DNA from: Acidimicrobiaceae bacterium
Lineage (GTDB): Bacteria > Actinomycetota > Acidimicrobiia > Acidimicrobiales > JAUTXP01
Assembly (NCBI GenBank): GCA_030837965.1
Contig: JAUTXP010000051.1
Coordinates: 21,485 to 85,484, forward strand
Length of the DNA: 64,000 nucleotides
Direction: 5' to 3'
The position numbers were made by a program, and so were the translations under genes. Numbering within the stretch: the stretch's first letter is position 1; each line of letters begins with the position of its first letter. Below the pieces are notes generated by a model. That model did no database searches, had not been told where the DNA came from, and saw only the letters and a list, made by a program, of their open reading frames with translations. Below, one piece after another: positions 23,904 through 60,733 of this stretch.

Positions 23904-23934
23904 CTTTTCCACAGCAGCAGGTGCTGTGGAAAAG
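23904..23934 (+). repeat. family A palindromic intergenic element, copy A1
   Basis: CTTTTCCACAGCA-GCAGG-TGCTGTGGAAAAG with a 13-bp perfect stem. It begins 1 nt after the TGA (23900-23902) of the amidinotransferase-type gene. It has a C-rich 5' flank and a G-rich 3' flank, with the convergent ABC gene stop at 23952. Confidence 0.95.
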
Positions 23935-23951
23935 TTGGAGGGCTGCCGGGG

Positions 23952-26900
23952 TCAGGCCGCGGGCTCGGGGGCGAAGCTGGCCCAGAGCTGCGCGTAGCGG
24001 CCGTTGACGGCCAGCAGCTCGGCGTGCGTGCCCTGCTCCACCACCCGGCCGTCGTCCACCACCACGATGACGTCGGCCGACATAGCCGTGGGCAGGCGGT
24101 GGGCGATCACGAACGTGGTGCGGCCCCGCGCCACCAGGCCCATGGCCCGCTGCACCCGTGCCTCGGTGGCCAGGTCCAAGTTGGACGTGGCCTCGTCCAG
24201 CAGGAGGATCACGGGGTCCACCAGCCGGGCCCGGGCCAGCGCGATCAACTGGCGCTGGCCGGCCGACAGCGACCGGCCCCGCTCGGTAACCACGTGCAGG
24301 TAGCCGCCCGCCAGCCCGGCGATGAAGTCGTGGGCGCCCACCGCCCTGGCCGCCTCCTCCACCTCGGCGTCGGCGGCGTCGGGCCTGCCGTAGGCGATGT
24401 TGTCGCGGATGGTGCCCGAGAACAGGAACGCCTCTTGGGGCACGTAGCCCAACTGGCGTCGGAAGGTGCCCAGGTCGAGCGAGGGCAGCGGGATGCCGTC
24501 GATCAGCACGCGCCCCGCGGTCGGGTCGTAGAAGCGGGCCACCAGCTTCACCACCGTGGACTTGCCCGCGCCCGTCTCCCCCACCAACGCAACCATCTGG
24601 CCGGGAGCCACGTCGATGTCCACGCCCCGCAAGGCCTCGCCCACCCCGCCGGGATAGGCGAAGTGCACGTCCTCCAAGCGGACCGCGCCACGCAGCCTGC
24701 CCACCGCCACCGGCGTCTCCGGCGCGGGCGTGCCCGTCGGCGTCTTCATCAGCTCGTCGATCTTGGCCGTGGAGGCCCGCGCCTGCTGATACGTGTCGAA
24801 CACCTGCGACAACTGCTGGATGGGCGCGAAGAGCTGTTCGAGGTACAGCAAGAAGGCGATCAGCTCGCCACGCGTCAACGACCCGCCGGTGATCAGGTGG
24901 GCGCCGAAGCCCAGCACCACGGCCGCGGCCACCTCGGACAGGAACTCCACGAACGGGAAGAAGAGGGCGACCAGGCGTTGGGCGGTGACGCGCGCGTCGA
25001 GGTGCTCGCCTGCCACCTTGCGGAACTCCTTCTCGTTGCGCCCCTCGCGTGAGTAGGCCAGCGAAACCCGCACGCCCGACAGGCTCTCCTGAAGATTGGC
25101 GTTGACGGCCGCGACCCGGTCGCGCGCCCGCGCATAAGCCCGGTCCGACAGGCGCCGGAACACGACGGTGGCGACCAGCAGCGGCGGGATGATGGTGAGC
25201 GTGGCCAGCGTGAGGCGCACGTTCAAGACGAACAGCACGAGGAAGATGCCGACGAAGCTGATGAGGTTGACCAGCGCGTTGATGAGCCCGCTCTGCAACA
25301 GCGTGGACAGCGCCTCCACGTCGGTGGTCATCCGGGTCATGATCCGACCCGCCATCTCGCGGTCATAGAAGTCGACCGACAGCCGTTGGAGGTGGGAGAA
25401 GATCCTGACCCGAAGCGCGAACAGCATGCGCTCGGACGCCCGGCCCAGATACCGGGCCGCGGCCCACGCGTTCAGCCAGCCCACCAGGACGACAACGCCG
25501 AACGCGGCCGTGGCCGCGGTCAAGGCCCGGGTCGACTGGCCGACGACGCCGCGGTCGATGCCATAGCGCACCAGCCCGGGGCCGGCCAGGGTGAGCAGCG
25601 AGTCGCATGCGAGCAGCCCGAAGCCGACCAGCAGTTGCCTGCGGAACGGGCGGACGAAGCGGCGCAAGGTGAAGTGCGGGTCTTCGGCGATGTGGTCGGC
25701 CACGTCGACGTCGGGCTCATCGACGATGGGCGGCAACAGCTCGACCGCGGCCATCAGCTCGGGCGTGGGCGGCAACGCCATCCCGCCGCCCATGAACCCG
25801 CCGCCGCCTCCGCCGCCGGGCCCTGGGCCTGGACCCAACGCGGCCGCGCCCGCGGCCCGTCGGGCCTCGCGGGTAGCCGCCTCCACCTCGGCGCGGGGCC
25901 AGGCCGCGGCCGTCACCCGGTGGGCGGCGGCGGGCGAGGTCGACGCGCTCGCGCCGTCGGCAGCGCTGTCGCCGTCGAGCGAGGCATCGGCGTCCACGCC
26001 TTCGCAATCCTCGCCCGGGCCCGCCAGCAACTGGCGGTACAGGGTCGAGCGGGCCAGCAGTTCCTCGTGCGACCCGCTGTCCACCACCCGGCCCTTGTCC
26101 ACCACCACGATGCGGTCGGCCAGTCGCAGCGTCGAGCGCCGGTGGGCGACCAGCAGCGTCGTGCGCCCCTCCATCAGCCTGCGGAGGGTGGCGTGGATCT
26201 CCTCCTCCACCCTGGCGTCCACGGCCGAGGTGGCGTCGTCCAGCACCAGGATGCGCGGGTCGGTGATGAGGGCGCGGGCCAGCGTGACGCGCTGACGCTG
26301 TCCGCCCGACAGGGTCAGGCCGCGCTCGCCCACAACGGTGTCGTAGCCCTCGGGCAGATCGAGGATGAAGTCGTGGGCCTCGGCCGACTGGGCCGCGGCC
26401 ACGATCTCCGCGTCGGTGGCGTCGGGCCGTCCGTAGGCGATGTTGTCGCGCACGGACATGGAGAACAGGAAGGCGTCCTCGAACACCACGCCGATCTGCC
26501 TGCGCAACGACTCGAAGGTCACGTCGCGCACGTCGACACCGTCGATGCGCACCGCGCCCGCCCGCACGTCGTAGAAGCGAGGAAGCAGCAGCGACACCGT
26601 CGACTTGCCCGAGCCCGACGCGCCCACCAGCGCCACCGTCTCCCCCGCGGCCACGTGCAGGTCGAAGCCGTTGAGAACGGGCTCGGTCGGCAGGTAGCCG
26701 AAGACGACGTCCTCGAACGCCACCTCGCCGTGAACCGGCGGCAGGTCGGATGCGTCAGGCCCCTCGACCACGTCCGGGTTGGCGTCGAGCACCTCGAAGA
26801 TGCGCTCGGCCCCGGCCCGGGCCAACTGGGCCACGGCCAGCATGATGGCGAACATGCGGGCGGGCGCCACCAGTTGGATGAGGTAGGACGAAAAGGCCAG

Positions 26901-27746
26901 GAAGGTACCCAGGCTGATGCGGCCGTGCATGGCGAGCCAGCCGCCCACGCCGAGGATGGCCACCTGCCCAAGTGAGGGCAGGGACTCGAGGGCGCCCGAC
27001 AGCTTGGCCTGGATGCGGACCGTGCGCAGCCGCGATCCGAACAGCTCGCGGGACACGTCCACCAGCCGGTTGAGCTCGCGCTCCTCCTGGCCGAAGCCCT
27101 TCACCACGCGCACGCCCGTCACGGCTTCGTCGACCACGCCCGCCACCTCGGCCGTGCGCTGCTGCGAGTCCCACGCGGCGGGGAAGAGCGTCTTGCGCAA
27201 CTGCATGGCGACCAGCGCGATGGCGGGGACGACAGCGAGGGCCACCAGGGTCAGCAGGGGCGACAGCGCCGTCATCACCACCAGCGACAGGACGACCATC
27301 ACGATGTTGCCGCTCATCAAGGGCAGGAAGGACATGAGCCCGAACAGCAGCCCCACGTCCGAGTTGGCCCGCGACACCAGTTGGCCCGTGTCCATCTCGT
27401 CGTGGCGCGCGAAGTCGAGCCTTTGCAACCGGTCGTAGATGGCGTTGCGGATGTCGTACTGGACGTCGAGGGCGATGCGCCCGCCATAGAAGCGGCGCAC
27501 GTAGGCCAAGCCGAAGCGGGCCGCGCCCGCCAGCAGCAGGACGGTGAGCCACGGGGCCAGCGTGCGCCGGTGGGTGACGACCACGTCGTCGATGAGGACC
27601 TTCTCCACGATGGGCGTGAGGGCGGTCACCACCTGGCCGAAGACGGCCGACCCGAAGGCGAGGAACAGGTTGCGCTTGTGGGCGAACAGGAACGGCAGCA
27701 GTCGCCGCACCCACCCCGTCTTGGCCGCCGTCCCCGCCCCCTCCAT
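23952..27746 (-). CDS. fused (TMD-NBD)x2 ABC exporter
   Basis: Two Walker A motifs ([18 protein letters not shown]), two signatures ([16 protein letters not shown]) and two 6-TM blocks. The start is ATG 27746. An alternative ATG at 27782 lies inside repeat A2, and the track start 27791 also lies in the repeat. Confidence 0.85.
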
Positions 27747-27771
27747 CACCCGCCGATCGTAGAGCCGCCAC

Positions 27772-27824
27772 CCCCTCTCCATCTTTTCCACAGCAGCAGG
27801 TGCTGTGGAAAAGATGGAGGGGGG
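27772..27824 (+). repeat. family A palindromic intergenic element, copy A2 (longest stem)
   Basis: CCCCTCTCCATCTTTTCCACAGCA-GCAGG-TGCTGTGGAAAAGATGGAGGGGGG gives 24 consecutive pairs including one G-T. The core is 27783-27813. It fills the gap between the kynU stop (27825) and the ABC gene start. Confidence 0.95.
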
Positions 27825-29057
27825 TCAGGTGATGAGGGCGCGCAGGCGGGACAGGCCGTCGAACACGTCGACGAAGCGCGTGTAGAGCGGGGCCAGTCCG
27901 ATGCGGATCACGTCCGGCGTGCGGAAGTCGGGAACCACACCCGCCTCTTGGATCAACAGGTCGCAGATGGTGCGGGCGTCGGGGTGGCGCAGCGACACGT
28001 GCGAGCCCCGCCGGGCCGGGTCGCGGGGTGTGGCCAGGTCGAACCCGTGCGGGGCCAGCCACTCGTCGTGCAGGCGAATGGCGAACTCGGTCAATGCGAT
28101 CGCCTTCTCGCGCAACGGCCCCATGCCCGCCCGGGCCAGGATGCGCGCCCCCTCCTCGACCGCCACCAGGCCGAGCACGTTGGGCGATCCGACCACGTGC
28201 TGGACCATGCCCGGCGCCGGGTCGTAGCGCGGCCCCATCTCGAACTGCTCGCGCTGGCCGAACCACCCCCAGATGGGTTGGCGCAACGTGGGCTGCAACT
28301 CGGCTCGCACATAGGAAAAGGCGGGCGCGCCCGGCCCTGCGTTCACGTACTTGTAGGTGCAGCCCACGGCCAGGTCGGCGCCCGTGTCGGTCAACGCCAC
28401 TGGCACCGAGCCGACCGCATGACTGAGGTCCCACAGGATCAGCGCGCCCGCCTCGTGGGCCAGCCATGTGAGCACCGACATGTCGGCCATGGCCCCCGAC
28501 TTGAAGGCCACGTGCGACAGGCAGACCAAGGCCACGTCGCCCGGCCGCAACGCCTGGCCCAGCGAGTCGCCGTCCGGGCCTGCCACCGGATCACTCTCGA
28601 AGAGCCGCAGCTCCAGCCCGCGCTGGGCGCACAGTCCCTCCAACACATAGCGGTCCGTAGGGAAGTTGGCCGTGTCGGTGACCACCACCCGGCGCTCTAA
28701 CCCTGCGTTGGACGCGCCGACGGTGTCCAAGGCGGCGGACGCCAGCTTGTAGATGTTGACCGTGGTCGAGTCGCCCACCACCACCTCGCCAGGGCGCGCC
28801 CCCAACAGCTCGGTGCCCAGCAGGTCGCCCACCCGCGTGGGCAGGTCGATCCAGTTCTCCCACGACCCGATCAGCGTGCGGCCCCACTCGTTGGCCACGA
28901 CGCGCTCGACGCGCCCGAGGGTGGCGTAGGGCAGTCGGCCCAGCGAGTTGCCGTCCAGGTAGATGCGGCCGTCGTCGTCGATGGCGAACTCGTCGCGAAA
29001 CGACGCCAGCCCGTCGGCGGCGTCGAGCGCCTCCGCCTCCTGCCGCTCCGCCGTCAT
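27825..29057 (-). CDS. kynU: kynureninase
   Basis: 410 aa with LDGNSLGRLP and the PLP-lysine motif CTYKYVNAGPGAPAF. Confidence 0.85.
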   Translation of the reverse strand: MTAERQEAEALDAADGLASFRDEFAIDDDGRIYLDGNSLGRLPYATLGRVERVVANEWGRTLIGSWENWIDLPTRVGDLLGTELLGARPGEVVVGDSTTVNIYKLASAALDTVGASNAGLERRVVVTDTANFPTDRYVLEGLCAQRGLELRLFESDPVAGPDGDSLGQALRPGDVALVCLSHVAFKSGAMADMSVLTWLAHEAGALILWDLSHAVGSVPVALTDTGADLAVGCTYKYVNAGPGAPAFSYVRAELQPTLRQPIWGWFGQREQFEMGPRYDPAPGMVQHVVGSPNVLGLVAVEEGARILARAGMGPLREKAIALTEFAIRLHDEWLAPHGFDLATPRDPARRGSHVSLRHPDARTICDLLIQEAGVVPDFRTPDVIRIGLAPLYTRFVDVFDGLSRLRALIT

Positions 29058-32536: not shown

Positions 32537-32583
32537 TTCTGGGCACCTTTTCTTGTCCGTGGGCGAAGAAAAGGTGCCCAGAA
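32537..32583. repeat. family B palindromic intergenic element, copy B1
   Basis: TTCTGGGCACCTTTTCTT-gtccgtgggcg-AAGAAAAGGTGCCCAGAA with an 18-bp perfect stem, a ccc 5' flank and a cgggg 3' flank. It lies between the yqgE-like stop and the aminotransferase start. Confidence 0.9.
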
Positions 32584-34601: not shown

Positions 34602-34648
34602 TTCTGGGCACCTTTTCTTGTCACAGAGGCAAGAAAAGGTGCCCAGAA
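34602..34648. repeat. family B palindromic intergenic element, copy B2
   Basis: TTCTGGGCACCTTTTCTTG-tcacagagg-CAAGAAAAGGTGCCCAGAA with a 19-bp perfect stem. It lies between the convergent ACAD (+) and ABC ATPase (-) stops. Confidence 0.9.
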
Positions 34649-38719: not shown

Positions 38720-38750
38720 CTTTTCCACAGCACCTGCTGCTGTGGAAAAG
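38720..38750 (-). repeat. family A palindromic intergenic element, copy A3
   Basis: The minus strand reads CTTTTCCACAGCA-GCAGG-TGCTGTGGAAAAG and is followed immediately by the selD ATG. C- and G-rich flanks span 38706-38772. Confidence 0.95.
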
Positions 38751-38787: not shown

Positions 38788-40722
38788 TCAGAGCCATTGG
38801 CGCAGGACCTCCTCGGTGTGCTGGCCGAGTCGGGGCGCGGGGCCGGCGATGGGCAGGACCCGGCCGTCGACCCGGATGGGCGTGGCCTCGAACGGAAGGG
38901 GATACGTGCCCATGTGGGCCAACTGGACGTCGCGCTCCAACCGGTCGGCCTGGTCCTGCACCACGCCGCACGCCGCCCCTCGAGCCTGGCCGTCGCGCAC
39001 CGCCGCGTACCCGTCGCGGAACCGGGCCACCTCCACCGCGTCCAGCCCGACGACCCATCGCCCGTCGGCCGCCCGCACCACCGGCCCTTCGTTGCCCGGC
39101 GTGACCAGGCCCGGGTTCTCCAGGGCCAGCGACGCACAGACCAGTCCGCATTCCACCTGGCTGACGTCCACCCACCGGGCCCGCCCGTCCTGGCGGGTGG
39201 CGTGCAGGGCGGCCAGCAGCCCGACGGTGGCGTAGTAGCCGCCCACGTAGTCGAGGTACGAGTACCCGAACCCGGCGGGCTCGCGGCCGGGCAGGCCCGA
39301 CAGCCACGCGCACCCGCTGATGGCCTGGGCCGTCGGGCCCCAGGTGTCGTAGTCCCGCTTGGGCCCCTCGTGCCCGAACCCGCTGAGCGACACGTAGACG
39401 ATCGAGGGGTTGGCCGACTGGAGGTCGTCGAAGGCCAGCCCCAGCCGCTCCATCACCCGGGACGAGAAGTTCTCGACCACCACGTCGGCCGACGCGACCA
39501 AGGCCAGCACGGTGTCTCGGTCCTTCGCGTCCTGCATGTCCAAGGCCAACGAGCGCTTGCCCGCGTTGAGGTTGGCGAAGAAGGGCGACCCCTCGCCGTC
39601 GGGGAAGGTGCCGCTCGACCCGATGGGCATGATCCGCATGAGCTCGGGCTTGCCCGGGCGCTCGACCTTCACCACGTCGGCCCCGGCATGAGCCAGGATG
39701 CGAGTGACGGTCGGCCCCGCCACCTGCCAGGTGAAGTCCAGCACCCGAAGCCCGCGCACCGGCCCTGGTCTTCGAGGCCCGGCGCCCGCGCCAACCGGGT
39801 CCCCCACATGGACCCGCCACGGCACCCAGTCCTCGAACACCGGCCTGCCCAAGAACTGCGGGTCGTCCCGGTTCTCCTCGGGCCTGCGCACCACGCCCCA
39901 CGGCAGGTCGCGGGCCTGGCCTCCTTCAAAGGCGGCGTCGGCGGGCAGGGTGGCGACGAAGGCGCCCAGCACGTCGAAGATGTGCTTCTCCTCGGCCAGT
40001 CGGACCGAGCCTTTCAGCCAACGCTCGTCGGTGAGATCAGCCGCCATCCCGTGCTCGTCGAGCCACGACACGATCGAGGCCCAGCGGTCCCGGGTCAGCG
40101 CAGGGAGGATGAGGTTGGCGTAGCGGCCGTCGGCGCAGCGCCACTGCCACCGCCTGGGATCGGCCTCATGCGAGGCGTGCTGGCCCGCGTGGCGCATGAG
40201 CCGCTCGCCCCTGGCCGTCCACGCTGCGAACTCGGTCTCGTGGCCGACGGAGTTGGCCTCGTGCCACGACGTGGCCGCCCGCGACCCGGCTCCGTTCACC
40301 AACAGGAGGGCGGCGATGGCGCCCATGAGCCCGCCCACGACCTCGGCCTGGTTGCCCGCGCACATGACCGGCGGCTCGTCCTCGCCGTCGTAGCCGTCGA
40401 GGGCCATCATCCCGCACAGGGCCTGGTGGGCCAGCTCGCTCCCCTGCCAGCGCGACCACGGCCCGTCCTCGCCGAAGCGGGTGACCCGCACGACGGGCAC
40501 ATCGGGCCAGTCGTCGAGCGGCGGCGACCCGGCCGGGCGCCCGTCCAGCACGAGATTGGGTGAAGAATCCGACATGTCGCCCTTGAACCGATCCCGCCAA
40601 CGACGCACCATAGGGGGACCGTCAGCGCCGGCCGTCTCCACCTCCGCACCACACGCCCCCAGCAGACGTCCGGCGAAGGCAGCGAGGTCCCCGAACTCCC
40701 GCACGCGAAGGCCGTTCAGCAT
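38788..40722 (-). CDS. CaiB/BaiF family III CoA-transferase (long, apparently two-domain form)
   Basis: 644 aa. The C-terminal half (GLRVLDFTWQVAGPTVTRILAHAGADVVKVERP...) is canonical. The N-terminal half begins with a degenerate copy of the same opening (GLRVREFGDLAAFAGRLLGACGAEV). Confidence 0.8.
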   Translation of the reverse strand: MLNGLRVREFGDLAAFAGRLLGACGAEVETAGADGPPMVRRWRDRFKGDMSDSSPNLVLDGRPAGSPPLDDWPDVPVVRVTRFGEDGPWSRWQGSELAHQALCGMMALDGYDGEDEPPVMCAGNQAEVVGGLMGAIAALLLVNGAGSRAATSWHEANSVGHETEFAAWTARGERLMRHAGQHASHEADPRRWQWRCADGRYANLILPALTRDRWASIVSWLDEHGMAADLTDERWLKGSVRLAEEKHIFDVLGAFVATLPADAAFEGGQARDLPWGVVRRPEENRDDPQFLGRPVFEDWVPWRVHVGDPVGAGAGPRRPGPVRGLRVLDFTWQVAGPTVTRILAHAGADVVKVERPGKPELMRIMPIGSSGTFPDGEGSPFFANLNAGKRSLALDMQDAKDRDTVLALVASADVVVENFSSRVMERLGLAFDDLQSANPSIVYVSLSGFGHEGPKRDYDTWGPTAQAISGCAWLSGLPGREPAGFGYSYLDYVGGYYATVGLLAALHATRQDGRARWVDVSQVECGLVCASLALENPGLVTPGNEGPVVRAADGRWVVGLDAVEVARFRDGYAAVRDGQARGAACGVVQDQADRLERDVQLAHMGTYPLPFEATPIRVDGRVLPIAGPAPRLGQHTEEVLRQWL

Positions 40723-41315: not shown

Positions 41316-41352
41316 CATCTTTTCCACAGCACCTGCTGCTGTGGAAAAGATG
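41316..41352 (-). repeat. family A palindromic intergenic element, copy A4
   Basis: The core is 41319-41349, and the minus strand reads GCAGG in the loop. The stem is extended by CAT/ATG. It lies 15 nt after the stop at 41365. Confidence 0.95.
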
Positions 41353-41364: not shown

Positions 41365-42636
41365 TCAGCGCGGTGAGGCCGGGCGTTGGGACGCGACGGG
41401 CGGGGCCAGCAGGGCCTCGCCGCGGGCCTCGGTGGTCGACCACGAAGGGTCGAGGCCGGGGGCGCGCAGGACCACGGCCTGGTCGGCGTCACGACGCTCC
41501 AACTCCCACAGCAGCGCGGGCCGGTCGCCGTGCCAGCGCAGCGCGAACGACATGGAGCCGAACGCGGTGGGCACGTCGTGGACTTCGATGGCCTGGCCCG
41601 CCCAGCCGTCAGCGACGGTGGAGCACAGGTCCAACCCGTCCGTCCTCTCGAACACCACGGCATCGCGCACCACGGCCAGGAAGCGGGCCGCGGCCTGCGC
41701 GTTGTGGCCCGGCGGCCAGGTGAAGGTGGGGCCGGCCGCGTCGAGCACGGCCTGCAACTCGGCCGCCGAGGGCGGTGCGGGCCCTGGTCGGGGAAGCTCG
41801 GCGGACCGGTCGGAGAACAGCGGGAGGAACCGGCGGTTGGCCTCGACCGCGTCGGCCAGCCTGCCGGGCGGGAGGTCGAAGCGCATGCCGGTGCGGGCGT
41901 GGACGGCCCAGCCCTTGGCCACCGCTTCGGCCGTTGGCAATGCCGTTGGCAATGCCGTTGGGAACGCAGGCCGCGGTCGGCCTCGGCGCCACCATCGCGG
42001 TCGGGGCGACACCAACGGCATCACCACCCGCAACACCGCGGTGTGGGGCAGCGGAAAGATGAAGGCGGCTTGGGCTCGACCGGCCTTGCACCGCAACGGC
42101 TCGGGGAACTGCGTGCCCGCGGCCCCGCTGGTGACGATCTCGGCCACGTCGCCTTCGTCCAGGGTGGAAGCGGCCACACGCGCGGGCGGCTTCATGAACA
42201 ACAACGCGGTGCGGCCGTCCACGGTCACGGCGTTGTCGCGCCACGCGATGCGCTCGACGCGTGCCGGCCCCGTGGGGTTGGCGGGCCGGACGACCAACGC
42301 CACCGCGAACGGGATGGGCGACGCATTCTCGATCTCCACCACGGCCACGCCGCCATCCGGGCTGGGCACGCCGTAGACCCGCTGGACGGCGTCGCCGCTG
42401 GGCACGCGCATGGCCGTCTCCACCACCGGGCTGTGGGCGACCAGGCGCTGTCGAACGCCTGACTCGGTGGCGGCCATGTGCCACCGGTCGTCGGCCCCGA
42501 TCCACCAGTCCAGCGACCAACCGCCGGGCCACGGCGTCACCAGGCCGCGCCCGTCGACGATGGCCCGCCCGGGCGAGCCGATGCTGCCCACCGTCGTCCA
42601 GCGGGCCTCGGCCAGGCCGGGCGCGGGCTCGACCAT
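41365..42636 (-). CDS. hypothetical protein (423 aa), co-transcribed with gpsA
   Basis: Part of track ORF 41365..44022. The ATG at 42636 overlaps the gpsA stop as TGATG. No domain was recognised, and it contains the short internal repeat FPTALPTALPTA. Confidence 0.6.
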   Translation of the reverse strand: MVEPAPGLAEARWTTVGSIGSPGRAIVDGRGLVTPWPGGWSLDWWIGADDRWHMAATESGVRQRLVAHSPVVETAMRVPSGDAVQRVYGVPSPDGGVAVVEIENASPIPFAVALVVRPANPTGPARVERIAWRDNAVTVDGRTALLFMKPPARVAASTLDEGDVAEIVTSGAAGTQFPEPLRCKAGRAQAAFIFPLPHTAVLRVVMPLVSPRPRWWRRGRPRPAFPTALPTALPTAEAVAKGWAVHARTGMRFDLPPGRLADAVEANRRFLPLFSDRSAELPRPGPAPPSAAELQAVLDAAGPTFTWPPGHNAQAAARFLAVVRDAVVFERTDGLDLCSTVADGWAGQAIEVHDVPTAFGSMSFALRWHGDRPALLWELERRDADQAVVLRAPGLDPSWSTTEARGEALLAPPVASQRPASPR

Positions 42637-44269: not shown

Positions 44270-45015
44270 GCAGCGCGACCAGCGCGGGCTTTTCGACCGA
44301 CCTTGATCCGCCCGCACGGGCGCTGGCCATCGGCGCCCACCCGGACGATGTGGAGTTCGGCTGCGGAGCCACCTTGGCCAAGTGGGCCGCGGCCGGGTGC
44401 GCCATCCACCACGTGGTCTGCACCGATGGGTCCAAGGGGTCGTGGGACCCGTCCGAGGACACGGCCCGGCTGGTGGCCCTGCGCCAGGAGGAGCAGCGCG
44501 CCGCCTCGCGCGCCTTGGGCGGCAAGGGCGAGGTCGTGTTCTTGGGCTGGCCCGACGGGGAGTTGGAGTCGGGGCTGCGGCAACGGTGGGAGACGGCGTA
44601 CTGGATCAGGGCCATCAGACCCGACGTGGTGCTGGGCCACGATCCGTGGAAGCGCTACCGGCTGCACCCCGATCACCGCAACGCGGGGCTGCTGGCCGTG
44701 GAGGGGATCGTGGCCGCCCGCGACCCGCACTTCTTCCCCGAGCAGGGCGTGGAGCCGTGGCGGCCGTCGGCGCTGCTGCTGTGGGAGGCGGACGAGGCCG
44801 ATCACGTGGAGGACGCGGCGGGCTTCGTCGACGCCAAGTTCGCCGCCCTCATGGAGCACCGCTCGCAGTTGCGCTCCACCATGCACGTGGACGACGCCGA
44901 CGACGACGCCCAAGTCCGCGCCTTTCGGTCGCTGATGGAGGAGCGCTTGGCCGAGCACGGCGCCCTGGCCGGGTTGGCCGCGGGCGAGGCGTTCAAGCTC
45001 ATCACCCGCCTGTAG
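44266..45015 (+). CDS. PIG-L/LmbE family deacetylase
   Basis: 249 aa with [15 protein letters not shown] and HPDH motifs. The GTG start overlaps the cofC stop as GTGA. Confidence 0.8.
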
Positions 45016-45087
45016 CTCCGCGGGGCGGGCAGGCCGGGGTGGGGCCGGGCGGGACGGGGTGGGACGGGGCGGAACGGGGCGGAACGC

Positions 45088-45117
45088 GAAACGGCCTCCC
45101 CGAAGGGAGGCCGTTTC
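45088..45117. terminator. GC-rich hairpin between convergent genes (13-bp stem, UUCG loop on minus strand)
   Basis: GAAACGGCCTCCC-CGAA-GGGAGGCCGTTTC lies 18 nt below the stop of the Lys/Ala-rich gene. The AAA/TTT stem ends could serve either direction. Confidence 0.6.
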
Positions 45118-45134
45118 ACCACCGAGTTGGGCTC

Positions 45135-45431
45135 CTACCTCTTGGCCGTCTTCCTCGCCGCCGTCTTCTTGGCCGGGGCCTTCTTCGCCGTCGACTTCTT
45201 GGCCGTGGACTTCTTGGCCGGTGACGCCTTCTTGGACGCCGTCGACTTCTTGGCCGTCGACTTCTTGGCGGGTGAGGCCTTCTTCGACGCGGTGGCCTTC
45301 TTGGCCGTGCTCTTCTTGGCGGGCGACGCCTTCTTGCTGGCCGTCGCCTTCTTGGCCGTGCTCTTGGCTGCGGTGGTTTTCTTGGCCGTACTCTTCTTGG
45401 CCGCCGGAGCAGCCTTCTTGGTCGGGCTCAT
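45135..45431 (-). CDS. stand-alone Lys/Ala-rich histone-H1-like repeat protein
   Basis: 98 aa built from [10 protein letters not shown](A/S)TASKKA units. It has good GC3 codon bias and AAAGGCGG upstream of the ATG. Confidence 0.65.
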
Positions 45432-46782: not shown

Positions 46783-46829
46783 GTCGACGTTCCTACCCTG
46801 CCGCTAGGGTCTGAGCCAACCACAACCGA

Positions 46830-46916
46830 CCACCGGGGAGCCCCATTGGGCTGAGAGGGGTGCGAGCGCACCCGACCCGTCGAACCTGATCCGGGTCATG
46901 CCGGCGAAGGGAGCAT
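46830..46916 (+). promoter_or_regulatory. TPP (THI-box) riboswitch
   Basis: GGGGAGCCCC...GGGCTGAGAGGGGTGCGAGCGCACCCGACCCGTCGAACCTGATCCGGGTCATGCCGGCGAAGGGAG matches the conserved CUGAGA / ACCUGAUCYGG..AAUGCCRGCG.AGGGA core. Its 3' GGGAG doubles as the SD of the downstream gene. Confidence 0.85.
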
Positions 46917-46918
46917 CC

Positions 46919-48271
46919 ATGGCCGCCACCAGCGCCCCACCGAGCGCGGACCTCTCGATCGACGTCCCCCGCACCCTGGCCGAGGCCCCGCCGCCCCGCC
47001 TCCTGACGGTCTGGGACCAAGGCGCGCTGTGGGGGAACCTCGGCATCTCGTTGCTGCTGCTGGTCAGCGCCACCTTCGTGCTGGCCCCTGACCCGGGCCT
47101 GCCCCCGCTGTCCCTGCTGGCCGCGTTCGTGGCCATCGGCGTGGGCAGCATCATCGGCAACCTGCTGCTCGGCCTCTCGGCCGTGCCCGGCGCCGAGACG
47201 GGCGCGCCCGCCATGGTGCTGCTGCGCGGGATGCTCGGCTGGCGGGGCTCGTGGGTGCCCACCGCGCTCAACATCCTCCAAAACGTCGGATGGGCCACCT
47301 TCGAGGTCATCATCATCGCCGAGTCGGCCGCCCACCTGACCCGCCCGGGCCTGCGGCCCTTCTTCATCGTGGCCGCGGGCGCCATTGCCACCCTCATGGC
47401 CATCCGGCCGCTCGGGGTGGTGCGCGGCGTGCTGAAGAAGGTGGCCGTGTGGGCCGTGCTCGCGTCCACCGCGTACCTGTTCGTGCGCGTCCTCAGCCAG
47501 CCCTTGCCGTCGTTGACGCAAGGGTCGTGGGCGGGCTTTTGGAAGGGCACCGACATCGTCATCGCCCTGCCCGCGTCGTGGATCCCGTTGGCCGCCGACT
47601 ACAGCCGCCACTCGCGCTCGAACCGGGCCGCGTTCGCAGGCGCATTCGGGGGCTACGGGCTGGCGCAGCTCCTGTTCTTCTCGCTCGGCGTGCTGGCCTA
47701 CAGCGCCTTTGCCCTGCAAGCCCCGCCGGGCGGACAGGTCGACGTGATCACGTCCATCCTCGCCGTCCCGGTCGGCGGTCTGGCCCTCATGATCCTCGTG
47801 TTCGACGAGCTCGACGAGGTGTTCGCCAACATCTACTCGACGGTCGTGTCGACGCAGAACATCGAGCCTCGACTGGACCGGCGCGTGCTGGCCGTGGTGG
47901 TCGGGGTGGTGGCCACGGTGCTCGCCCTCGTCCTCGACATCCGCAACTACGAGAGCTTCCTGCTGTTGCTCGGCTCGGTGTTCCTGCCCCTGTTCGGCGC
48001 CTTCGCGGTCGACTACTTCGTGCTGCGCAGGCGGCACTGGGACACGTCGGAAAGCGCGCGCCCTCGGTGGGAGATGCTCGTCCCCTGGCTGCTGGGCTTC
48101 GTCACCTACCAACTGGTGAACCCAGGCGGGGTGAGCTGGTGGGCCCGCTTCTGGGTGGCCCGCCAGCACAACCTGCACCTCACCGTGCCCACGTGGGCCA
48201 GCGCCTCGATCCTGTCGGTCGTGGTGGCCGCGGCCGCGGCCCTGGCCGTGGGCCGCCTGCGCAAGCGCTGA
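46919..48271 (+). CDS. cytX: NCS1-family permease, putative hydroxymethylpyrimidine transporter CytX
   Basis: 450-aa 12-TM permease directly behind the TPP riboswitch. The start is moved from 46898, which lies inside the aptamer, to ATG 46919. Confidence 0.8.
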   Translation: MAATSAPPSADLSIDVPRTLAEAPPPRLLTVWDQGALWGNLGISLLLLVSATFVLAPDPGLPPLSLLAAFVAIGVGSIIGNLLLGLSAVPGAETGAPAMVLLRGMLGWRGSWVPTALNILQNVGWATFEVIIIAESAAHLTRPGLRPFFIVAAGAIATLMAIRPLGVVRGVLKKVAVWAVLASTAYLFVRVLSQPLPSLTQGSWAGFWKGTDIVIALPASWIPLAADYSRHSRSNRAAFAGAFGGYGLAQLLFFSLGVLAYSAFALQAPPGGQVDVITSILAVPVGGLALMILVFDELDEVFANIYSTVVSTQNIEPRLDRRVLAVVVGVVATVLALVLDIRNYESFLLLLGSVFLPLFGAFAVDYFVLRRRHWDTSESARPRWEMLVPWLLGFVTYQLVNPGGVSWWARFWVARQHNLHLTVPTWASASILSVVVAAAAALAVGRLRKR

Positions 48272-56238: not shown

Positions 56239-56276
56239 TCCAAACTTTCAATTGCCGTTGCTAGGGTGCGGCGGCC

Positions 56277-57365
56277 ATGGAGCGGTCGACGGTCCGGATC
56301 TACGAGATGCAAGCGGACGAATGGATCGCGGCCCGGCCCGCCAAGCGGGTCGAACTGGCGCAGAAGGTGGCGTCGTCCGCGCGGGCCGGACGGCCGGTGG
56401 TGGACGTGGGCTGCGGGCCGGGCGGCCACTTCGCCGTGCTGGCCGAGCAGGGCGCGTCGGTCGTCGGTGTGGACGCCGCGTTCTCGATGCTGGCCCACGC
56501 GCGGGACAACGTGGATGTCGCCGGGTCCAGCGTGGTGCAGGCCGACCTCATGGCCCTGCCCTTGGCCCGCCAGTCCTGCGGTGGCGCGTGGGCCCGCATG
56601 TCGTACCACCACATCCCCCGGGCCGACCTGCCGTTGGCGTTGGCCCATCTCCATCACGCGCTGGCCGTCGACGCGCCGTTGGCACTGGTGAGCCAGCGGG
56701 GCGCGGACGAGGGCGTGACCGGGGCCGACGACGAGTTCCCCGGCCGCTACTTCGCCTGTTGGGAGCCGGCGCCGTTGACCGACGTGCTCGTGGGCGCGGG
56801 CTTCGACGTGGCGTGGGCCGAGCCCGACGGCGACGAGGTGGTGGCGTGGGCCACGCGGGCCCGCACCCTGCCCGACACCGTCGGGCCCGGCATGCGGCTG
56901 CTGGTGTGCGGGCTGAACCCGAGCCTGTACGCGGCCGATGCGGGCGCGGGCTTCGCCCGTCGGGCCAACCGGTTCTGGCCCGCCATGACGGCCGCGGGTT
57001 TGGTCTGCGAGGCGCGGGCGTGGGACCCGTTGCATCTGCTGACCGGGCACGGCATCGGCATGACCGACCTGGTCAAGCGGGCCACGGTCGCGGCGGCCGA
57101 GTTGTCGGTCGAGGAATACCGGGCGGGCGTGGAGCGGGTGCGGCGGCTGGTGTCGTGGCTGCGGCCCGGCGCCGTGCTGTTCGTGGGGCTCGACGGTTGG
57201 CGCAAGGCGGTGGACCGGCGGGCCGTCGCGGGCGTGCAGCCGGACGGGTTCGGGGGCGTGCCTGCCTACGTCATGCCGTCGACCAGCGGCCTGAATGCGT
57301 CATCGCAACTGCCGGCGCTGACCGACCACCTCCGCGCCGCCGCCACCCTCCCCGCTCCCACCTGA
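56277..57365 (+). CDS. fusion protein: class I SAM-dependent methyltransferase domain + Mug/TDG-type (family 2) uracil/mismatch DNA glycosylase domain
   Basis: The N-terminus has SAM motif I, VVDVGCGPGGH. The C-terminus from ~aa 205 has LLVCGLNPSLYAADAGAGFARRANRFWPA and MPSTSGLNA, resembling the Mug GINPG and NPSGLS motifs. Confidence 0.75.
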   Translation: MERSTVRIYEMQADEWIAARPAKRVELAQKVASSARAGRPVVDVGCGPGGHFAVLAEQGASVVGVDAAFSMLAHARDNVDVAGSSVVQADLMALPLARQSCGGAWARMSYHHIPRADLPLALAHLHHALAVDAPLALVSQRGADEGVTGADDEFPGRYFACWEPAPLTDVLVGAGFDVAWAEPDGDEVVAWATRARTLPDTVGPGMRLLVCGLNPSLYAADAGAGFARRANRFWPAMTAAGLVCEARAWDPLHLLTGHGIGMTDLVKRATVAAAELSVEEYRAGVERVRRLVSWLRPGAVLFVGLDGWRKAVDRRAVAGVQPDGFGGVPAYVMPSTSGLNASSQLPALTDHLRAAATLPAPT

Positions 57366-57382
57366 ACCCGCCCCCTCCCGCG

Positions 57383-57413
57383 CTTTTCCACAGCAGCAGG
57401 TGCTGTGGAAAAG
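57383..57413 (+). repeat. family A palindromic intergenic element, copy A5
   Basis: CTTTTCCACAGCA-GCAGG-TGCTGTGGAAAAG lies between convergent stops at 57365 (+) and 57423 (-). The flanks are cccgccccctcccgcg on the 5' side and ttggggggg on the 3' side. Confidence 0.95.
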
Positions 57414-57422
57414 TTGGGGGGG

Positions 57423-58973
57423 TCAGTTGACGAGGCGGTCGCGGCCTTCCCAGTAGGGCTTGCGCATCTTGAACTTCTGGAGCTTGCCCGTGGCCGTGCG
57501 CTCCAGGACGTCACGGAACTCGACCGAGGTCGGGCACTTGTAATGGGCCAGGCGCGAGCGGCAGAACTCGCGCAGCTCGTCCTCGGTGACGTCGTCTCCT
57601 TCGCCCCCGCGGCGCACGATGAGGGCCTTCACCGTCTCGCCCCACTTGTCGTCGGGCACGCCGATGACGCAGGCCTCGGCCACGGCCGGGTGCTGGTAGA
57701 GACAGTCCTCCACCTCGATGGACGACACGTTCTCGCCGCCGGTGATGATCACGTCCTTCTTGCGGTCCTCGATGACGACGTAGGGCCCGTCGAGCTTGCC
57801 ACCGTCGCCCGTGTGGAACCAGCCGTCGCGCAAGGCCTTGGCCGACTCCTCGGGCTGCTCCCAGTAGCCCTCGAACACGACGTTGGAGCGGGCCAGGACT
57901 TCGCCCTCGTCGTCCACGGCCATGCGCACGCCGATGCCGGGCAGGCCGGCGCGGGCCAACCGCTCTGCCAGTTCGGCAGGCGGCAGGTCGTCCCATTCGG
58001 TGATGCGGCGGTTCATGGTGAGGAACGGCGAGGTCTCGGTGAGCCCGTAGATCTGAATGAACTCCCAGCCCAGTTCCGTGCCGACCCGCTCGATGGTCTT
58101 GGAGGGAGGCGGCGCGCCGGCCACCACCATGCGCACGCCCGCGGGCACGGGTGCGCCTGCCGCGGCCGCGTCGAGGATGGCGGCCACGACCGCGGGCGCG
58201 CCGCACAGGAGGGTGACGCCCTCGGCCTCGATGCGCTTGAGGATCTCGGCCCCGTCGACCTTGCGGATGACGACCTGCTTGCATCCCATGCCGGTGAGGG
58301 CGTAGGGCATGCCCCAGCCGTTGCAGTGGAACATGGGCAGCGTGTGGAGGTAGGTGTCGCGCTCGGTGATGGTGGTGTGCCAGCCAAAGGTGACGGCGTT
58401 GAGCCACAGGTTGCGGTGGGTGAGCTGCACCCCTTTGGGCCGGGCCGTGGTGCCGGAGGTGTAGTTGATGGACGCGGTGGCGTCCTCGTCTGGCGTCCAG
58501 CCCCGAGGCTCGGCTGCGGCGGTGGGGCCGAGGGCCGCGAACAGCTCGGCGTCCTGGGTGCCGTCGAGGACGATGCGGTGCTTGGCCGTCACGCCCGCGA
58601 GCGGCGCGTCGTACTCGGGGTCGACGAGCAGGACGGACGTGCCCGAGTGCTCGACGATGTAGGCGACCTCCTCGGCGTTGAGCCGGAAGTTGATGGGCAC
58701 GATGGTGCGGCCGTAGCCGCTGACGCCGAAGTAGGAGATGAGGAACTTGGCCGCGTTGGGGCTGACGATGCCGACCCGCTCGCCCGGGCCCACGCCCATG
58801 CGATCGAGGGCTACGGCCATGCCCTTGGCCCGGGCCGCCACCTCGCCGTAGGTGAGCCGGCCGAGGGCGCCGGGCGGGCCGGTCTCGGCGGGCTCGTCCA
58901 CCACCGCGGTGCGCTCGGGGAAGCACAGCGCGGCCCGGTCCAAGAAGTCGGCAACCGTGAGGGCAACCTTCAT
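57423..58973 (-). CDS. AMP-dependent acyl-CoA synthetase/ligase
   Basis: 516 aa with YTSGTTARPKGV, an adenylation core and a C-terminal ATGKLQKF. Confidence 0.9.
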   Translation of the reverse strand: MKVALTVADFLDRAALCFPERTAVVDEPAETGPPGALGRLTYGEVAARAKGMAVALDRMGVGPGERVGIVSPNAAKFLISYFGVSGYGRTIVPINFRLNAEEVAYIVEHSGTSVLLVDPEYDAPLAGVTAKHRIVLDGTQDAELFAALGPTAAAEPRGWTPDEDATASINYTSGTTARPKGVQLTHRNLWLNAVTFGWHTTITERDTYLHTLPMFHCNGWGMPYALTGMGCKQVVIRKVDGAEILKRIEAEGVTLLCGAPAVVAAILDAAAAGAPVPAGVRMVVAGAPPPSKTIERVGTELGWEFIQIYGLTETSPFLTMNRRITEWDDLPPAELAERLARAGLPGIGVRMAVDDEGEVLARSNVVFEGYWEQPEESAKALRDGWFHTGDGGKLDGPYVVIEDRKKDVIITGGENVSSIEVEDCLYQHPAVAEACVIGVPDDKWGETVKALIVRRGGEGDDVTEDELREFCRSRLAHYKCPTSVEFRDVLERTATGKLQKFKMRKPYWEGRDRLVN

Positions 58974-59039
58974 GGCCGCACCCTACCGCCGGCGCTGCAT
59001 CCACCGACCCGAACAACACGGTTGGTATTTTCGGTGGGT

Positions 59040-59258
59040 ATGGACGAGTGCCGTGGTCTGCTGGTCACGCATCTGGATGGGCGCGTGGAGTGCCTGGACA
59101 GTGCCTGCGTGAGCTTTGACGGCCCTCGGCACGAGTGGCGGACAGGCTGTGACGACGTGCCCGGCCTGTGCGCCTGCTCCGTTCCGGCCACTGCCGCCGC
59201 CGGCTCGGGCGAGTCCCGCTCGTCCCGCTCCCGCCGCGGCCAAGCCGAAGCCGCCTAA
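59040..59258 (+). CDS. possible small Cys-rich protein (72 aa)
   Basis: MDECRGLLVTHLDGRVECLDSACVSFDGPRHEWRTGCDDVPGLCACS... has moderate GC3 bias and ends 17 nt before repeat A6. The SD is weak. Confidence 0.3.
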   Translation: MDECRGLLVTHLDGRVECLDSACVSFDGPRHEWRTGCDDVPGLCACSVPATAAAGSGESRSSRSRRGQAEAA

Positions 59259-59274
59259 CCCCCGTACCCCCACC

Positions 59275-59324
59275 CTCTCCATCTTTTCCACAGCACCTGT
59301 TGCTGTGGAAAAGATCAGACGGGG
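59275..59324 (-). repeat. family A element, copy A6 (50-nt block identical to A7)
   Basis: CTCTCCATCTTTTCCACAGCACCTGTTGCTGTGGAAAAGATCAGACGGGG. The core is 59283-59313 and the loop is ACAGG on the minus strand. The block includes the stop and last two codons of the lipoprotein gene. Confidence 0.95.
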
Positions 59325-60184
59325 CCGACGATCCACCACTCGGTCGTGGAGTCGCGGGCGAACGGGGCCGCGCTCGGAGACGTCGACTCGACCGTCTGCT
59401 TCACCACGATGCCGAGCGAGGGGGCATACCAGTCCTCGACCGCGTCGTGCTGCTCGTGGCCCGACGACCGGGTGACCGACACTCGCTTCACGACATACAC
59501 GGCGGTGGACCTGCCTGCGATGGAGAACGAGTCGGTTCTGACCACGTCGGCGGTCGACTCTTCGGTTCTCTCCACCGGGCCCGAGCGGGTCGCGTCTCGG
59601 CATGACACCGACGACGTCCAATGGGCGCCGACCGAAGATGGCTGGGGGATGACGGTGCGAGCCGGTCGCCATGGGCAGTCCGACTCGGCGCCGGCGTCGG
59701 CGCTCGATGCGAACTGCCACCGCACGCGTTGCTCCTCCACGGCGTGATCGGTCGTCTGCAGAGTGCGGGTGAAAACCTGGCCCGTCGAGTCGTCGGCGAA
59801 GGCCACGTCCCTCATCGTCGAGCCTGCTACCGGGGTGATGGTCAGCGTCGCCCTGAACGTCGATTGGCTCACCGCGTTCGACGTCCGGCTCCCTTGCACC
59901 ACGAAGCGGGCAGCCGCCGGGGCCGACGAAGACGGCGACCCCGTCTGCCCCGTCGGCAAGGTCGAGTTGGACCCCGTCTTCCCAGTGGTTGCCGTGCCGC
60001 GGCTTCGTGGATCCGACGCCTGGGCCGTGGCCGACGACTGGACGCGCCGGTCCGCATGAGGGCCGGCCTGGCCGGCATCCGATCCCAACCGCCGCCCGCT
60101 CCCGGTGGACGCCGACCCTGAACAGGCGCCCACCAACAGCGCGCTCGTCAGCGCGACCGCGACGTAACGGAATCGCATCGACAC
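59315..60184 (-). CDS. hypothetical lipoprotein
   Basis: 289 aa with signal peptide plus lipobox LLVGAC, followed by a Ser/Thr/Gly-rich linker. No domain was recognised. Confidence 0.65.
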   Translation of the reverse strand: MSMRFRYVAVALTSALLVGACSGSASTGSGRRLGSDAGQAGPHADRRVQSSATAQASDPRSRGTATTGKTGSNSTLPTGQTGSPSSSAPAAARFVVQGSRTSNAVSQSTFRATLTITPVAGSTMRDVAFADDSTGQVFTRTLQTTDHAVEEQRVRWQFASSADAGAESDCPWRPARTVIPQPSSVGAHWTSSVSCRDATRSGPVERTEESTADVVRTDSFSIAGRSTAVYVVKRVSVTRSSGHEQHDAVEDWYAPSLGIVVKQTVESTSPSAAPFARDSTTEWWIVGPV

Positions 60185-60185
60185 A

Positions 60186-60638
60186 TCAAGGCTCGTACGC
60201 GGGAAGTCGGCAACCCAGGAATGCAGTCGAGTTCAGGCTTCCAAACGCGATCTCGCCCCGGTCAAAGACAGCTTTCTGCTCCCAGTGGAGGACGAAGTAG
60301 TACGGGCCGTCGTCGGGACAGTTCTGAGTAATCACGCCCAAGCTGGCCCGGTCGACGATGACCACCGGCTGCCCGTTTCCCATGATCCAGATGATCTGCG
60401 TGTGCTCGTCGGCGCACGCCACGCCCGGACAGCCCAATTGGTTGCCGTTGGCATAGCCCTCGATGCGGTCGTCGCATCGAGGACCGGTAAAAACCGTTGG
60501 CGTACACGTGTATTGGAGCGAGGGTCCCGCCAGACTCACGTCGGTCGACGCCTCCGTGCCTTCGACGCCGCTCGCCATCGTGGCCAGGCCGACGAGAACG
60601 GTCGCGACGAGCAATCGAGCCCAGATGGCGGGTCTCAC
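60186..60638 (-). CDS. hypothetical secreted Cys-containing protein
   Basis: 150 aa from GTG 60638 (VRPAIWARLLVATVLVGLATMASG signal-like), with 6 Cys in the mature part. The track start 60746 runs through repeat A7. Confidence 0.55.
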   Translation of the reverse strand: MRPAIWARLLVATVLVGLATMASGVEGTEASTDVSLAGPSLQYTCTPTVFTGPRCDDRIEGYANGNQLGCPGVACADEHTQIIWIMGNGQPVVIVDRASLGVITQNCPDDGPYYFVLHWEQKAVFDRGEIAFGSLNSTAFLGCRLPAYEP

Positions 60639-60683
60639 CTCCCTGCAACACCTCCAGCGAGTGAATTCCGGAGAACCATACCG

Positions 60684-60733
60684 CTCTCCATCTTTTCCAC
60701 AGCACCTGTTGCTGTGGAAAAGATCAGACGGGG
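60684..60733 (-). repeat. family A element, copy A7 (50-nt block identical to A6)
   Basis: The same 50 nt as 59275-59324, with the core at 60692-60722. It lies 20 nt below the methyltransferase stop (60743). Confidence 0.95.

Follow-up and report, generated by a model that had tools for sequence, protein, structure and literature searches.

The subject of this work is a short palindromic hairpin, here called family A, that occurs seven times in a 64,000-nucleotide stretch of contig JAUTXP010000051.1 (positions 21,485 to 85,484, forward strand) of an Acidimicrobiaceae bacterium (assembly GCA_030837965.1). This whole stretch is referred to as the window, and positions are counted from its first letter; handles such as L006 denote contigs and loci with which it was compared. 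The window genes, mapped from G+C at third codon positions (GC3) and checked against precomputed annotations of near-identical contigs and Pfam, are ordinary metabolic and housekeeping genes, and those that flank the hairpins are functionally unrelated. The seven copies and their neighbours are:

23904–23934, + strand: H1, loop GCAGG on the + strand, extended element ~23892–23946; between a DDAH-like gene (22943–23902, +) and, convergent with it, an ABC transporter gene (23952–27791, −).
27783–27813, + strand: H2, loop GCAGG on the + strand, against the direction of transcription; 11 nt past the stop of a kynureninase-like gene (27825–29057, −), with the start of the ABC transporter gene directly downstream.
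38720–38750, − strand: H3, loop GCAGG on the − strand; 37 nt past the stop of a CoA-transferase gene (38788–40551, −), with the ATG of a SelD-like (AIRS-family) gene directly after the hairpin.
41319–41349, − strand: H4, loop GCAGG on the − strand; 15 nt past the stop of a 423-aa gene (41365–42636, −), with a GYD-domain gene downstream.
57383–57413, + strand: H5, loop GCAGG on the + strand; between a methyltransferase/UDG gene (56277–57365, +) and, convergent with it, an acyl-CoA synthetase gene (57423–58973, −).
59283–59313, − strand: H6, loop ACAGG on the − strand; right member of a 50-bp exact direct repeat (59275–59324).
60692–60722, − strand: H7, loop ACAGG on the − strand; left member of the same repeat (60684–60733), with the stop of a methyltransferase gene 20 nt before the hairpin.

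A search of the window for CTTTTCCACAGCA-N5-TGCTGTGGAAAAG that allowed up to three mismatches returned seven sites, each with none, and the pattern did not occur in 100 dinucleotide-preserving shuffles of the same sequence. Perfect stems of at least ten pairs number ten in the entire window, and seven of these are family-A copies. They are singletons 1.4–16 kb apart, seven identical copies across 37 kb, and solitary half-sites or degenerate sites of the family are absent from the window. On the strand where it reads RCAGG, the loop is GCAGG at five sites (23904+, 27783+, 38720−, 41319− and 57383+) and ACAGG at two (59283− and 60692−). The hairpin cores are 48–57% A+T, as against ~71% G+C for the window, and every copy is flanked by C-rich sequence on its 5′ side and by G-rich sequence on its 3′ side. 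No U-tract follows the hairpin on either strand; the 3′ arm ends in AAAAG and passes into G-rich sequence. An earlier note on this DNA, made from the letters alone, had described the identical hairpins, the two loops, the C-tract and G-tract setting, the AT-rich core and the missing U-tract, and these observations are confirmed.

Each copy, folded as RNA with its surroundings (71–91 nt in all), gives one long stem-loop; the energies run from −31.8 to −50.7 kcal/mol and the z-scores from −3.2 to −8.3 (H1, −45.4 / −40.2 kcal/mol; H2, −50.7 kcal/mol, z −8.3). H2 has the longest stem of the seven, with 19 perfect pairs (27777–27819). The earlier note had given it 24 consecutive pairs; the stem is indeed long but it is not uninterrupted, the 19 Watson–Crick pairs being followed by a T-G and then by 5 further pairs. 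The CTCCATC/GATGGAG pair, said there to extend the stem often, pairs perfectly in H2 only, and in H4, H6 and H7 the extension amounts to 2–3 pairs. When the copies are aligned by their loops, the 3′ flank is (A/T)TGGAG-like and asymmetric in all seven and the 5′ flank is of three types, CTGAT, CCAT and CGCG. Since the loop has a fixed orientation relative to this asymmetric flank in the window, the unit is an oriented DNA element that exceeds the stem and not a symmetric palindrome. Its size is ~31–55 bp, its stem box is TCCACA...TGTGGA, with TTTTCCACAGCA in the window genome, and its loop nearly always contains CAGG, while the inner and outer stem segments are variable yet still complementary.

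The ~3.6 kb of intergenic DNA, 5.7% of the window, holds all seven copies, and each lies 1–38 nt past a stop codon. Apart from H1 and H5, which stand between convergent genes, they lie between co-directional minus-strand genes; the gaps that contain a copy are 2 of 10 convergent, 5 of 33 co-directional and 0 of 11 divergent. One explanation is that the hairpins are selected, sequence-conserved and non-mobile terminators or stabilisers of mRNA 3′ ends, read by a host factor in the manner of the TRIT (Tuberculosis Rho-independent terminator) elements of mycobacteria, of which Mycobacterium tuberculosis has 147 palindromic copies near stop codons and which have been suggested to require an unknown factor (PMC3152330). 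This would account for the placement past stops, both convergent junctions included, for the very stable stem-loops (−32 to −51 kcal/mol, z −3.2 to −8.3) and for a copy in a metagenome that lies just past a tRNA gene (see below). C-rich RNA before a pause hairpin fits a Rho-dependent design, and classical terminators are not enriched here: canonical hairpins with a U-tract found between 22 and 42 kb number 9, compared with 6.2 expected. Several observations nevertheless speak against it. Without a U-tract, and undetected by the terminator scan of 22–42 kb, the family-A hairpin is rejected as a canonical intrinsic terminator, in which a U-tract of 7–9 nt directly succeeds a G+C-rich hairpin, and mycobacterial RNA polymerase needs such a tract in vitro (PMC3993855). 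TRITs themselves are poorly backed by Term-seq: predicted ones overlap only 2–4% of mapped M. tuberculosis transcript ends (bioRxiv 10.1101/2022.06.01.494293). At tight operon junctions the next start codon is 0–12 nt past the stem, which leaves no room for a promoter, and a strong terminator would be awkward at H2 and H3 because a possible start of the next gene directly follows the stem; at H3, gene callers disagree on this start between public contigs.

The orientation of the conserved loop bears on the same question. The earlier note had stressed that six of the seven loops read with the upstream gene, but two of these six lie between convergent genes, and in the wider sample about 7–8 loops match the direction of transcription and 6 are opposite, so that the rule does not generalise and the count in the window is uninformative. 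A host-read transcript-end signal would thus have its loop randomly oriented relative to transcription. With this, and with the evidence from other genomes given below (unrelated hairpins at orthologous sites, and copies in frame in two genes, in divergent gaps and in the non-coding RNA of an insertion sequence (IS) of the IS110 family), we consider the explanation unlikely, though it is the main competitor of the reading favoured here.

A metagenome scan with the 30-nt core as query matched nine contigs of the soil metagenome Ga0190267, which carry nine exact and four variant copies (13 in total). The exact cores there are flanked by CGCC...GGCG, unlike those of the window, and two copies share a double, compensatory change (TTTTCCCCAGC...GCTGGGGAAAA). 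With 19 copies as input, a covariance model was built and used to find further variants, among them two copies of ACAATCCACAGCA-RCAGG-TGCTGTGGATTGT. One copy of TTTTCCACACAG-ACAGG-CTGTGTGGAAAA is found in L006, where the ortholog of the acyl-CoA synthetase is 84% identical, and four copies of TTTCCACAA(C/G)-loop-(G/C)TTGTGGAAA in L025, where it is 82% identical in protein; three of these four have CAGG in the loop, and the fourth, at 8343, reads CCAGA and is the sole copy without this motif. In the variants TTTTCCCCAGC/GCTGGGGAAAA, ACAATCCACAGC/GCTGTGGATTGT and TTTCCACAAC/GTTGTGGAAA the TCCACA box is either kept or changed on both arms. Across the 19 aligned sequences both-sided changes occur at stem pairs 11–45, 12–44, 13–43 and 20–36, and the covariation score of 0.163 exceeds those of all 500 shuffles and of all slid controls. 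Coming from few independent lineages, this covariation appears to support a folded form, whether of RNA or of single-stranded DNA.

Constant across the family are the TCCACA/TGTGGA box, the surrounding C-rich and G-rich sequence and, in almost every copy, CAGG in the loop. Family A is common to several Acidimicrobiales genomes whose intergenic DNA is otherwise unalignable, and it forms sub-families. It varies at orthologous sites: in L006 and L007 the site past the acyl-CoA synthetase gene is occupied by unrelated hairpins and has no family-A copy. The hairpin TCTGGAGGACATAG...CTATGTCCTCCAGA, which has one copy in the window, is one such unrelated hairpin at this site in relatives. The window belongs to a soil Acidimicrobiales genome: the synthetase next to H5 has a 99% identical protein in a metagenome-assembled genome (MAG) labelled ‘Acidimicrobiaceae bacterium’ and hundreds of homologues in soil Acidimicrobiales assemblies. 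The family is thus cross-species, has sub-families with paired changes, is variable at orthologous sites and, as described below, is linked to an insertion/duplication polymorphism.

Perfect dyad symmetry, with half-sites of 12–13 bp, and a core conserved across species are also what a palindromic operator or nucleoid-protein site would show if a dimeric protein bound it in the double-stranded form. Paired changes that alter both half-sites and compensate each other are tolerated, however, the loop is asymmetric and conserved, the sites are found at the 3′ ends of genes, convergent junctions without a promoter among them, and the window holds neither half-sites nor degenerate sites and no functional theme among the flanking genes; we therefore regard an operator as very improbable. 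The lack of solitary half-sites likewise removes a DNA-uptake-sequence model. In Neisseria, DNA-uptake sequences form inverted, terminator-like pairs after genes and are also abundant as single copies inside genes. Family A resembles the pairs in being a short inverted pair past genes that is conserved among related species, and differs in having no solitary half-sites.

The majority of copies in the wider sample are at gene 3′ ends; one of those in Ga0190267 lies 9 nt past a tRNA-Leu gene. Two are in divergent gaps, in L014 between greA and an Iso_dh (isocitrate/isopropylmalate dehydrogenase) gene and in L016 between uvrB and a PRiA4_ORF3-family gene. Two more, of ~25, are within genes. In L010 the hairpin (639–667) is in frame inside a TgpA-like open reading frame (ORF) of 851 aa (152–2707), with the codon-position G+C pattern continuing unchanged across it. 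In L025 it (12729–12765) is in frame inside a short-chain dehydrogenase/reductase (SDR) gene (12635–13315), where a 16-residue helix is replaced by an 11-residue peptide (..DAR-FPQDLSLWKSR-GV.. vs ..DAR-GADALRDAVAPLPGKV..). Microhomology at the junction is hinted at by the left end of this copy, which falls on the conserved Ala-Arg codons GCG CGA. The claim of the earlier note that every copy is intergenic and 1–37 nt past a stop is therefore correct for the window, with 38 nt as the upper limit, but fails in relatives, and family A occurs in places where no terminator would be selected. Rickettsia palindromic elements (RPEs), palindromic repeats of ~100–150 bp, are frequently intragenic and lie in frame inside protein genes, where they add or replace a peptide segment. 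The in-frame copies in the L025 SDR and L010 TgpA-like genes are like these, although, unlike RPEs, intragenic copies are a minority of family A.

The link to a polymorphism is found at H6 and H7, which are embedded in the 50-bp exact direct repeat (59275–59324 and 60684–60733) with a period of 1409 bp. Between them lie:

59325–60683, − strand: strain-specific insertion of 1.4 kb, with two ORFs.
60186–60614, − strand: ORF for a secreted 142-aa protein.
59315–60184, − strand: ORF for a 289-aa lipoprotein, its stop codon inside the 50-bp repeat.

The insert has a G+C content of 0.60–0.67, below the window level, and no Pfam domain was found in its two ORFs. Strains that are 97–98% identical across the aligned flanks have a single hairpin and no insert at this site. 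Because the insert is also absent in the more distant relatives L006, L007 and L025, we read the arrangement as a probable insertion accompanied by duplication of the hairpin; a deletion in the other strains between two pre-existing repeats would serve equally. Homologues of both ORFs, 50–65% identical and in the same order, are present in the Acidimicrobiales contig L024, at a locus without hairpins. As this is the sole homologous locus, the idea that the insert is mobile together with the hairpins was rejected. A small-scale parallel is seen in L025, where two direct family-A copies (8223–8255 and 8343–8377) with shared flanks GTCTGCC ... GGGTTTGG are 120 bp apart; their loops differ and are possibly flipped, and they bracket a short segment with another hairpin.

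These two arrangements, a lower-G+C two-gene insert between direct repeats that is absent from close strains and a short hairpin-bearing insert between direct copies in L025, bring to mind the attC sites of integrons, which are imperfect palindromes that serve for recombination, fold as single strands and stand at gene 3′ ends as family A does. The hairpins would then be site-specific recombination sites that mark cassette boundaries and capture genes. Family-A stems are perfect, unlike those of attC, which have extrahelical bases, and there is no array of promoterless cassettes; between the other hairpins lie core genes that are syntenic in relatives. Pfam scans of 20 window genes, together with Pfam tables precomputed for the stretches that L004 and L017 cover, showed no integrase or recombinase gene in the window. 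Given also that the homologues of both insert ORFs sit together in L024 without a hairpin, and that deletion by recombination between repeats explains the polymorphism just as well, we think this account quite improbable.

Further afield, the matches listed from the genome collection fall on one contig, OZ251535.1, a sponge-associated assembly of Candidatus Spongiisociaceae, which belongs to a different order of Acidimicrobiia. The four matches listed are all within copies of a ~1.4-kb repeat, 99% identical among copies, whose protein product has the domains DEDD_Tnp_IS110 and Transposase_20. The hairpin in this IS110 element, TTTTCCACAGCAG-CAG-CTGCTGTGGAAAA, shares 28 of 29 nucleotides with the window core. 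It is located in a structured left-end non-coding region of ~260 nt upstream of the transposase gene, where it makes up the apical stem in a module built as stem / internal loop / stem (fold −129 kcal/mol, z −6.8). A relative of this IS with a 77% identical transposase has TTTTCCACAGC-CATG-GCTGTGGAAAA at the equivalent place, and in relatives at 64% identity the place is taken by a short unrelated hairpin, CCATCCC-TA-GGGATGG, in flanks that can otherwise be aligned. We conclude from these comparisons that the hairpin is portable and that, as a module, it took the place of the tip of a stem already present in this IS lineage. The stem / internal-loop / stem architecture has been described for bridge-RNA loops (PMC11208160), and we infer that the module may be the target-binding loop of the bridge RNA; Rfam has no model for the IS110 non-coding module. 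Among the IS110 elements compared (L001, L002 1289–2702 and 5056–6469, and L003, all of OZ251535.1; relatives L020–L023), IS copies are nested in larger repeated sequence, and in L002 two of them are inverted around a 2.35-kb segment.

The near-identity of the hairpin in another Acidimicrobiia lineage, together with the insertion of IS110 elements into repetitive extragenic palindromic (REP) sequences and the need of at least one of them for a stem-loop in the target DNA, both stated in published reports (PMC12288879; bioRxiv 10.64898/2026.03.19.712850), could suggest that family-A copies are IS110 relics, that is, leftover pieces of bridge-RNA genes, or stem-loops at which IS110 elements land. 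We give this almost no credence. No IS110 gene or other IS110 sequence was found beside the ~25 non-IS copies, the flanks of the Spongiisociaceae IS copies have no hairpin, and the CAGG loop motif is lost in the IS (GCAGC, or CATG in the relative). Since sister elements have a different apical hairpin, the IS looks like a recipient of the hairpin and not its source. Family A thus shares with IS110 bridge RNAs of the IS621 type the occurrence of the hairpin in a left-end non-coding module, in the Spongiisociaceae copies and L020 only, whereas no window copy is in such a context and the window has no IS110 gene.

Searches for a catalogued family were negative. At gathering thresholds Rfam recognised only a thiamine pyrophosphate (TPP) riboswitch in the window and no family for the hairpin, and in E-value mode it gave only matches to generic hairpins (microRNA precursors) far below the thresholds. 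The earlier note had not recognised the hairpin as a described repeat, and this agrees with the lack of an Rfam family and of the GTAG/CGTC tags considered below. Other origins were rejected in turn. The copies are singletons and not an array as in CRISPR, the only Rfam CRISPR match scoring 20 bits against a cut-off of 36 bits. For a phage or plasmid origin there was no match in IMG/VR or phage records, and plasmids gave two short matches at chance level.

The evidence is best explained, and we consider it probable, by the seven hairpins being copies of a miniature dispersed palindromic repeat of Acidimicrobiales genomes, of the type of REPs, MITEs (miniature inverted-repeat transposable elements) and RPEs. 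The preference of the earlier note for a REP- or MITE-like dispersed element over a plain terminator is supported by the multi-genome family, by the absence of copies at orthologous sites and by the genic, divergent and IS110 copies. REPs and REPINs are short stem-loops (20–40 bp) present in many near-identical copies per genome; of family A, seven identical copies were counted in 37 kb of the window and 13 copies in the nine contigs of Ga0190267. As in REPs, the units lie just downstream of coding regions, with several families per genome, sometimes in clustered mosaics, and are presumably transcribed as RNA hairpins. REPs are reported mainly between convergent and co-directional ORFs and occasionally inside genes (PMC3733652), and the placement of family A agrees with this. 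The differences are that family A has no GTAG/CGTC tag and no REP-associated tyrosine transposase (RAYT) gene has been seen, that its stems are perfect and A+T-richer than the genome where those of REPs are G+C-rich, that its core and CAGG loop are kept across genera (except in the one L025 copy without the motif), and that its host belongs to the Actinomycetota (Acidimicrobiia) and not to the Proteobacteria. In the REP/RAYT surveys consulted, neither Acidimicrobiia nor Actinobacteria were found to be mentioned. MITEs derive from a parent IS and have terminal inverted repeats and a short target-site duplication; a family-A unit is a single palindrome throughout, its copies lack a consistent short duplication at their flanks and no parent IS was identified; the sole duplication seen at family-A copies is the 50-bp hairpin repeat around the 1.4-kb insert. 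TRITs, compared by description, are likewise sequence-conserved, largely palindromic, non-classical in design and placed around stops in a high-G+C actinobacterium (PMC3152330), but they are reported to be restricted to Mycobacterium and to lie at about −8 with respect to the stop, overlapping the end of the coding sequence, whereas family A belongs to Acidimicrobiia, lies at +1 to +38 and also occupies non-terminal positions. There is no Rfam family for TRITs either.

A number of points weigh against a dispersed repeat. The placement of all seven window copies just past stops, the tRNA-Leu copy and the constant C/G-tract setting are what is expected of a selected 3′-end signal, and a host factor that exerts purifying selection could explain why the 29-nt core is the same in different species. 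No transposase, RAYT, HUH or IS200/605-type gene was found in the window or in the loci compared, which are a small sample per genome. Known REP super-families are defined by an unpaired GTAG or CGTC tetranucleotide at one end of the stem, and family A lacks such a tag: of 25 extended elements, 2 have GTAG/CTAC and 7 have CGTC/GACG within 24 nt of their ends, at no fixed position. Finally, the three copies checked, H3, H4 and H5, are unchanged in close-strain contigs, mostly of 97–99% nucleotide identity (for H3 and H4 including L017 and L018), and, for the hairpin inserted by itself, no clean pair of filled and empty sites with a target-site duplication was found. The repeat and the 3′-end signal are not exclusive, however, because REPs are mobile elements with side effects at the RNA level; a terminator or mRNA-stabilising role of family A is possible as a secondary effect.

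If the hairpins are dispersed repeats, copies would arise at the DNA level, by transposition or by templated copying by an enzyme that may recognise the folded single-stranded hairpin through its stem box and CAGG loop. They would persist where they are least harmful, just past stops and at convergent and co-directional junctions, and often, it seems, at the apex of a pre-existing stem of C-tract and G-tract. Transcription would turn them into stem-loops of −32 to −51 kcal/mol without a U-tract, which would probably block 3′ exonucleases or pause RNA polymerase, as proposed for REPs, and not act as classical intrinsic terminators. The repeats may also be recombination hot spots, one copy having been duplicated over 50 bp around the 1.4-kb insertion. 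A more far-reaching version, which we rate as improbable, is that an undescribed, hairpin-specific DNA mobilisation system of Acidimicrobiia uses the hairpin as its recognition module. An enzyme that reads the TCCACA box and the CAGG loop on folded single-stranded DNA would then place copies at stem-loop apices, and foreign DNA could be captured at a resident hairpin with duplication of the hairpin (50 bp). If so, the repeats would be hot spots of cassette integration that work without an integron integrase, and the targets would be terminator-like C/G stems and the apical stem of the IS110 bridge RNA.

Small palindromic repeats are well studied in Proteobacteria. Acidimicrobiia, an abundant class of Actinomycetota in soils and the sea, are for the most part uncultured, and the literature searched, whose coverage falls short of all journals, contained no description of such repeats for them. 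What is new here is an untagged palindromic repeat with a conserved loop that is shared across genera in an unstudied class; the REP-like kind is already known. Family A provides a marker ready for covariance models, by which intergenic hairpins can be annotated and gene starts miscalled less often. It should be of use in studying how transcripts end and are stabilised in high-G+C actinobacteria without classical terminators, and it offers a route to the enzyme that spreads untagged REP-like repeats. The genic copies, the hairpin-bounded insertion and the IS110 copy are testable cases of repeats reshaping genes, gene content and the RNAs of mobile elements.

Family A is accompanied by other hairpins, and in L008, L015 and L025 it clusters with other hairpin families. 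The second family is common to several Acidimicrobiales contigs and consists of TCTGGAGGACATAG, a loop of 13–18 nt and CTATGTCCTCCAGA, with a compensatory variant GGAGTACATAG / CTATGTACTCC; it sometimes lies ~25–30 nt from a family-A copy, a mosaic like the clusters of BIMEs (bacterial interspersed mosaic elements) that enterobacteria have. In a third family both copies are at gene 3′ ends in a C-tract/G-tract setting, and an indel in L017 adjoins the second. L026, a more distant Acidimicrobiales contig, has repeated 49-nt hairpins in which the TGTGGA/TCCACA box is on the opposite arms compared with family A. The sites are:

Window 15349–15394; L007 5685–5728 and 11555–11597; L008 7917–7960; L010 7662–7705; L015 1845–1888: second hairpin family.
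Window 32537–32583 and 34602–34648: third hairpin family, TTCTGGGCACCTTTTCTT, loop, AAGAAAAGGTGCCCAGAA, with stems of 18–19 bp.
L026 6781–6829, 7774–7822 and 20405–20453: 49-nt hairpins that start with GACTTTGTGGAT and end with ATCCACAAAGTC.

The window also contains features unconnected with the hairpin families:

46824–46929, + strand: TPP riboswitch (Rfam RF00059, 62.5 bits), with a gene of the cytosine/purine-type permease family (46898–48271, +) downstream.
8284–8299 and 15314–15329: TCGAAC-N4-GTTCGA palindromes.
45015–45135: G-rich run of short GGGGCGGAAC-like repeats between convergent genes.
45088–45117: separate hairpin with a 13-bp stem, GAAACGGCCTCCC-CGAA-GGGAGGCCGTTTC, adjoining the G-rich run.

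The TCGAAC-N4-GTTCGA palindromes match the actinobacterial LexA/SOS box. One adjoins a DnaE2-like polymerase gene (4929–8291, −) and the other an ImuB-like gene (12556–14529, −) with an upstream ORF, and together these boxes and genes look like an SOS mutagenesis cassette.

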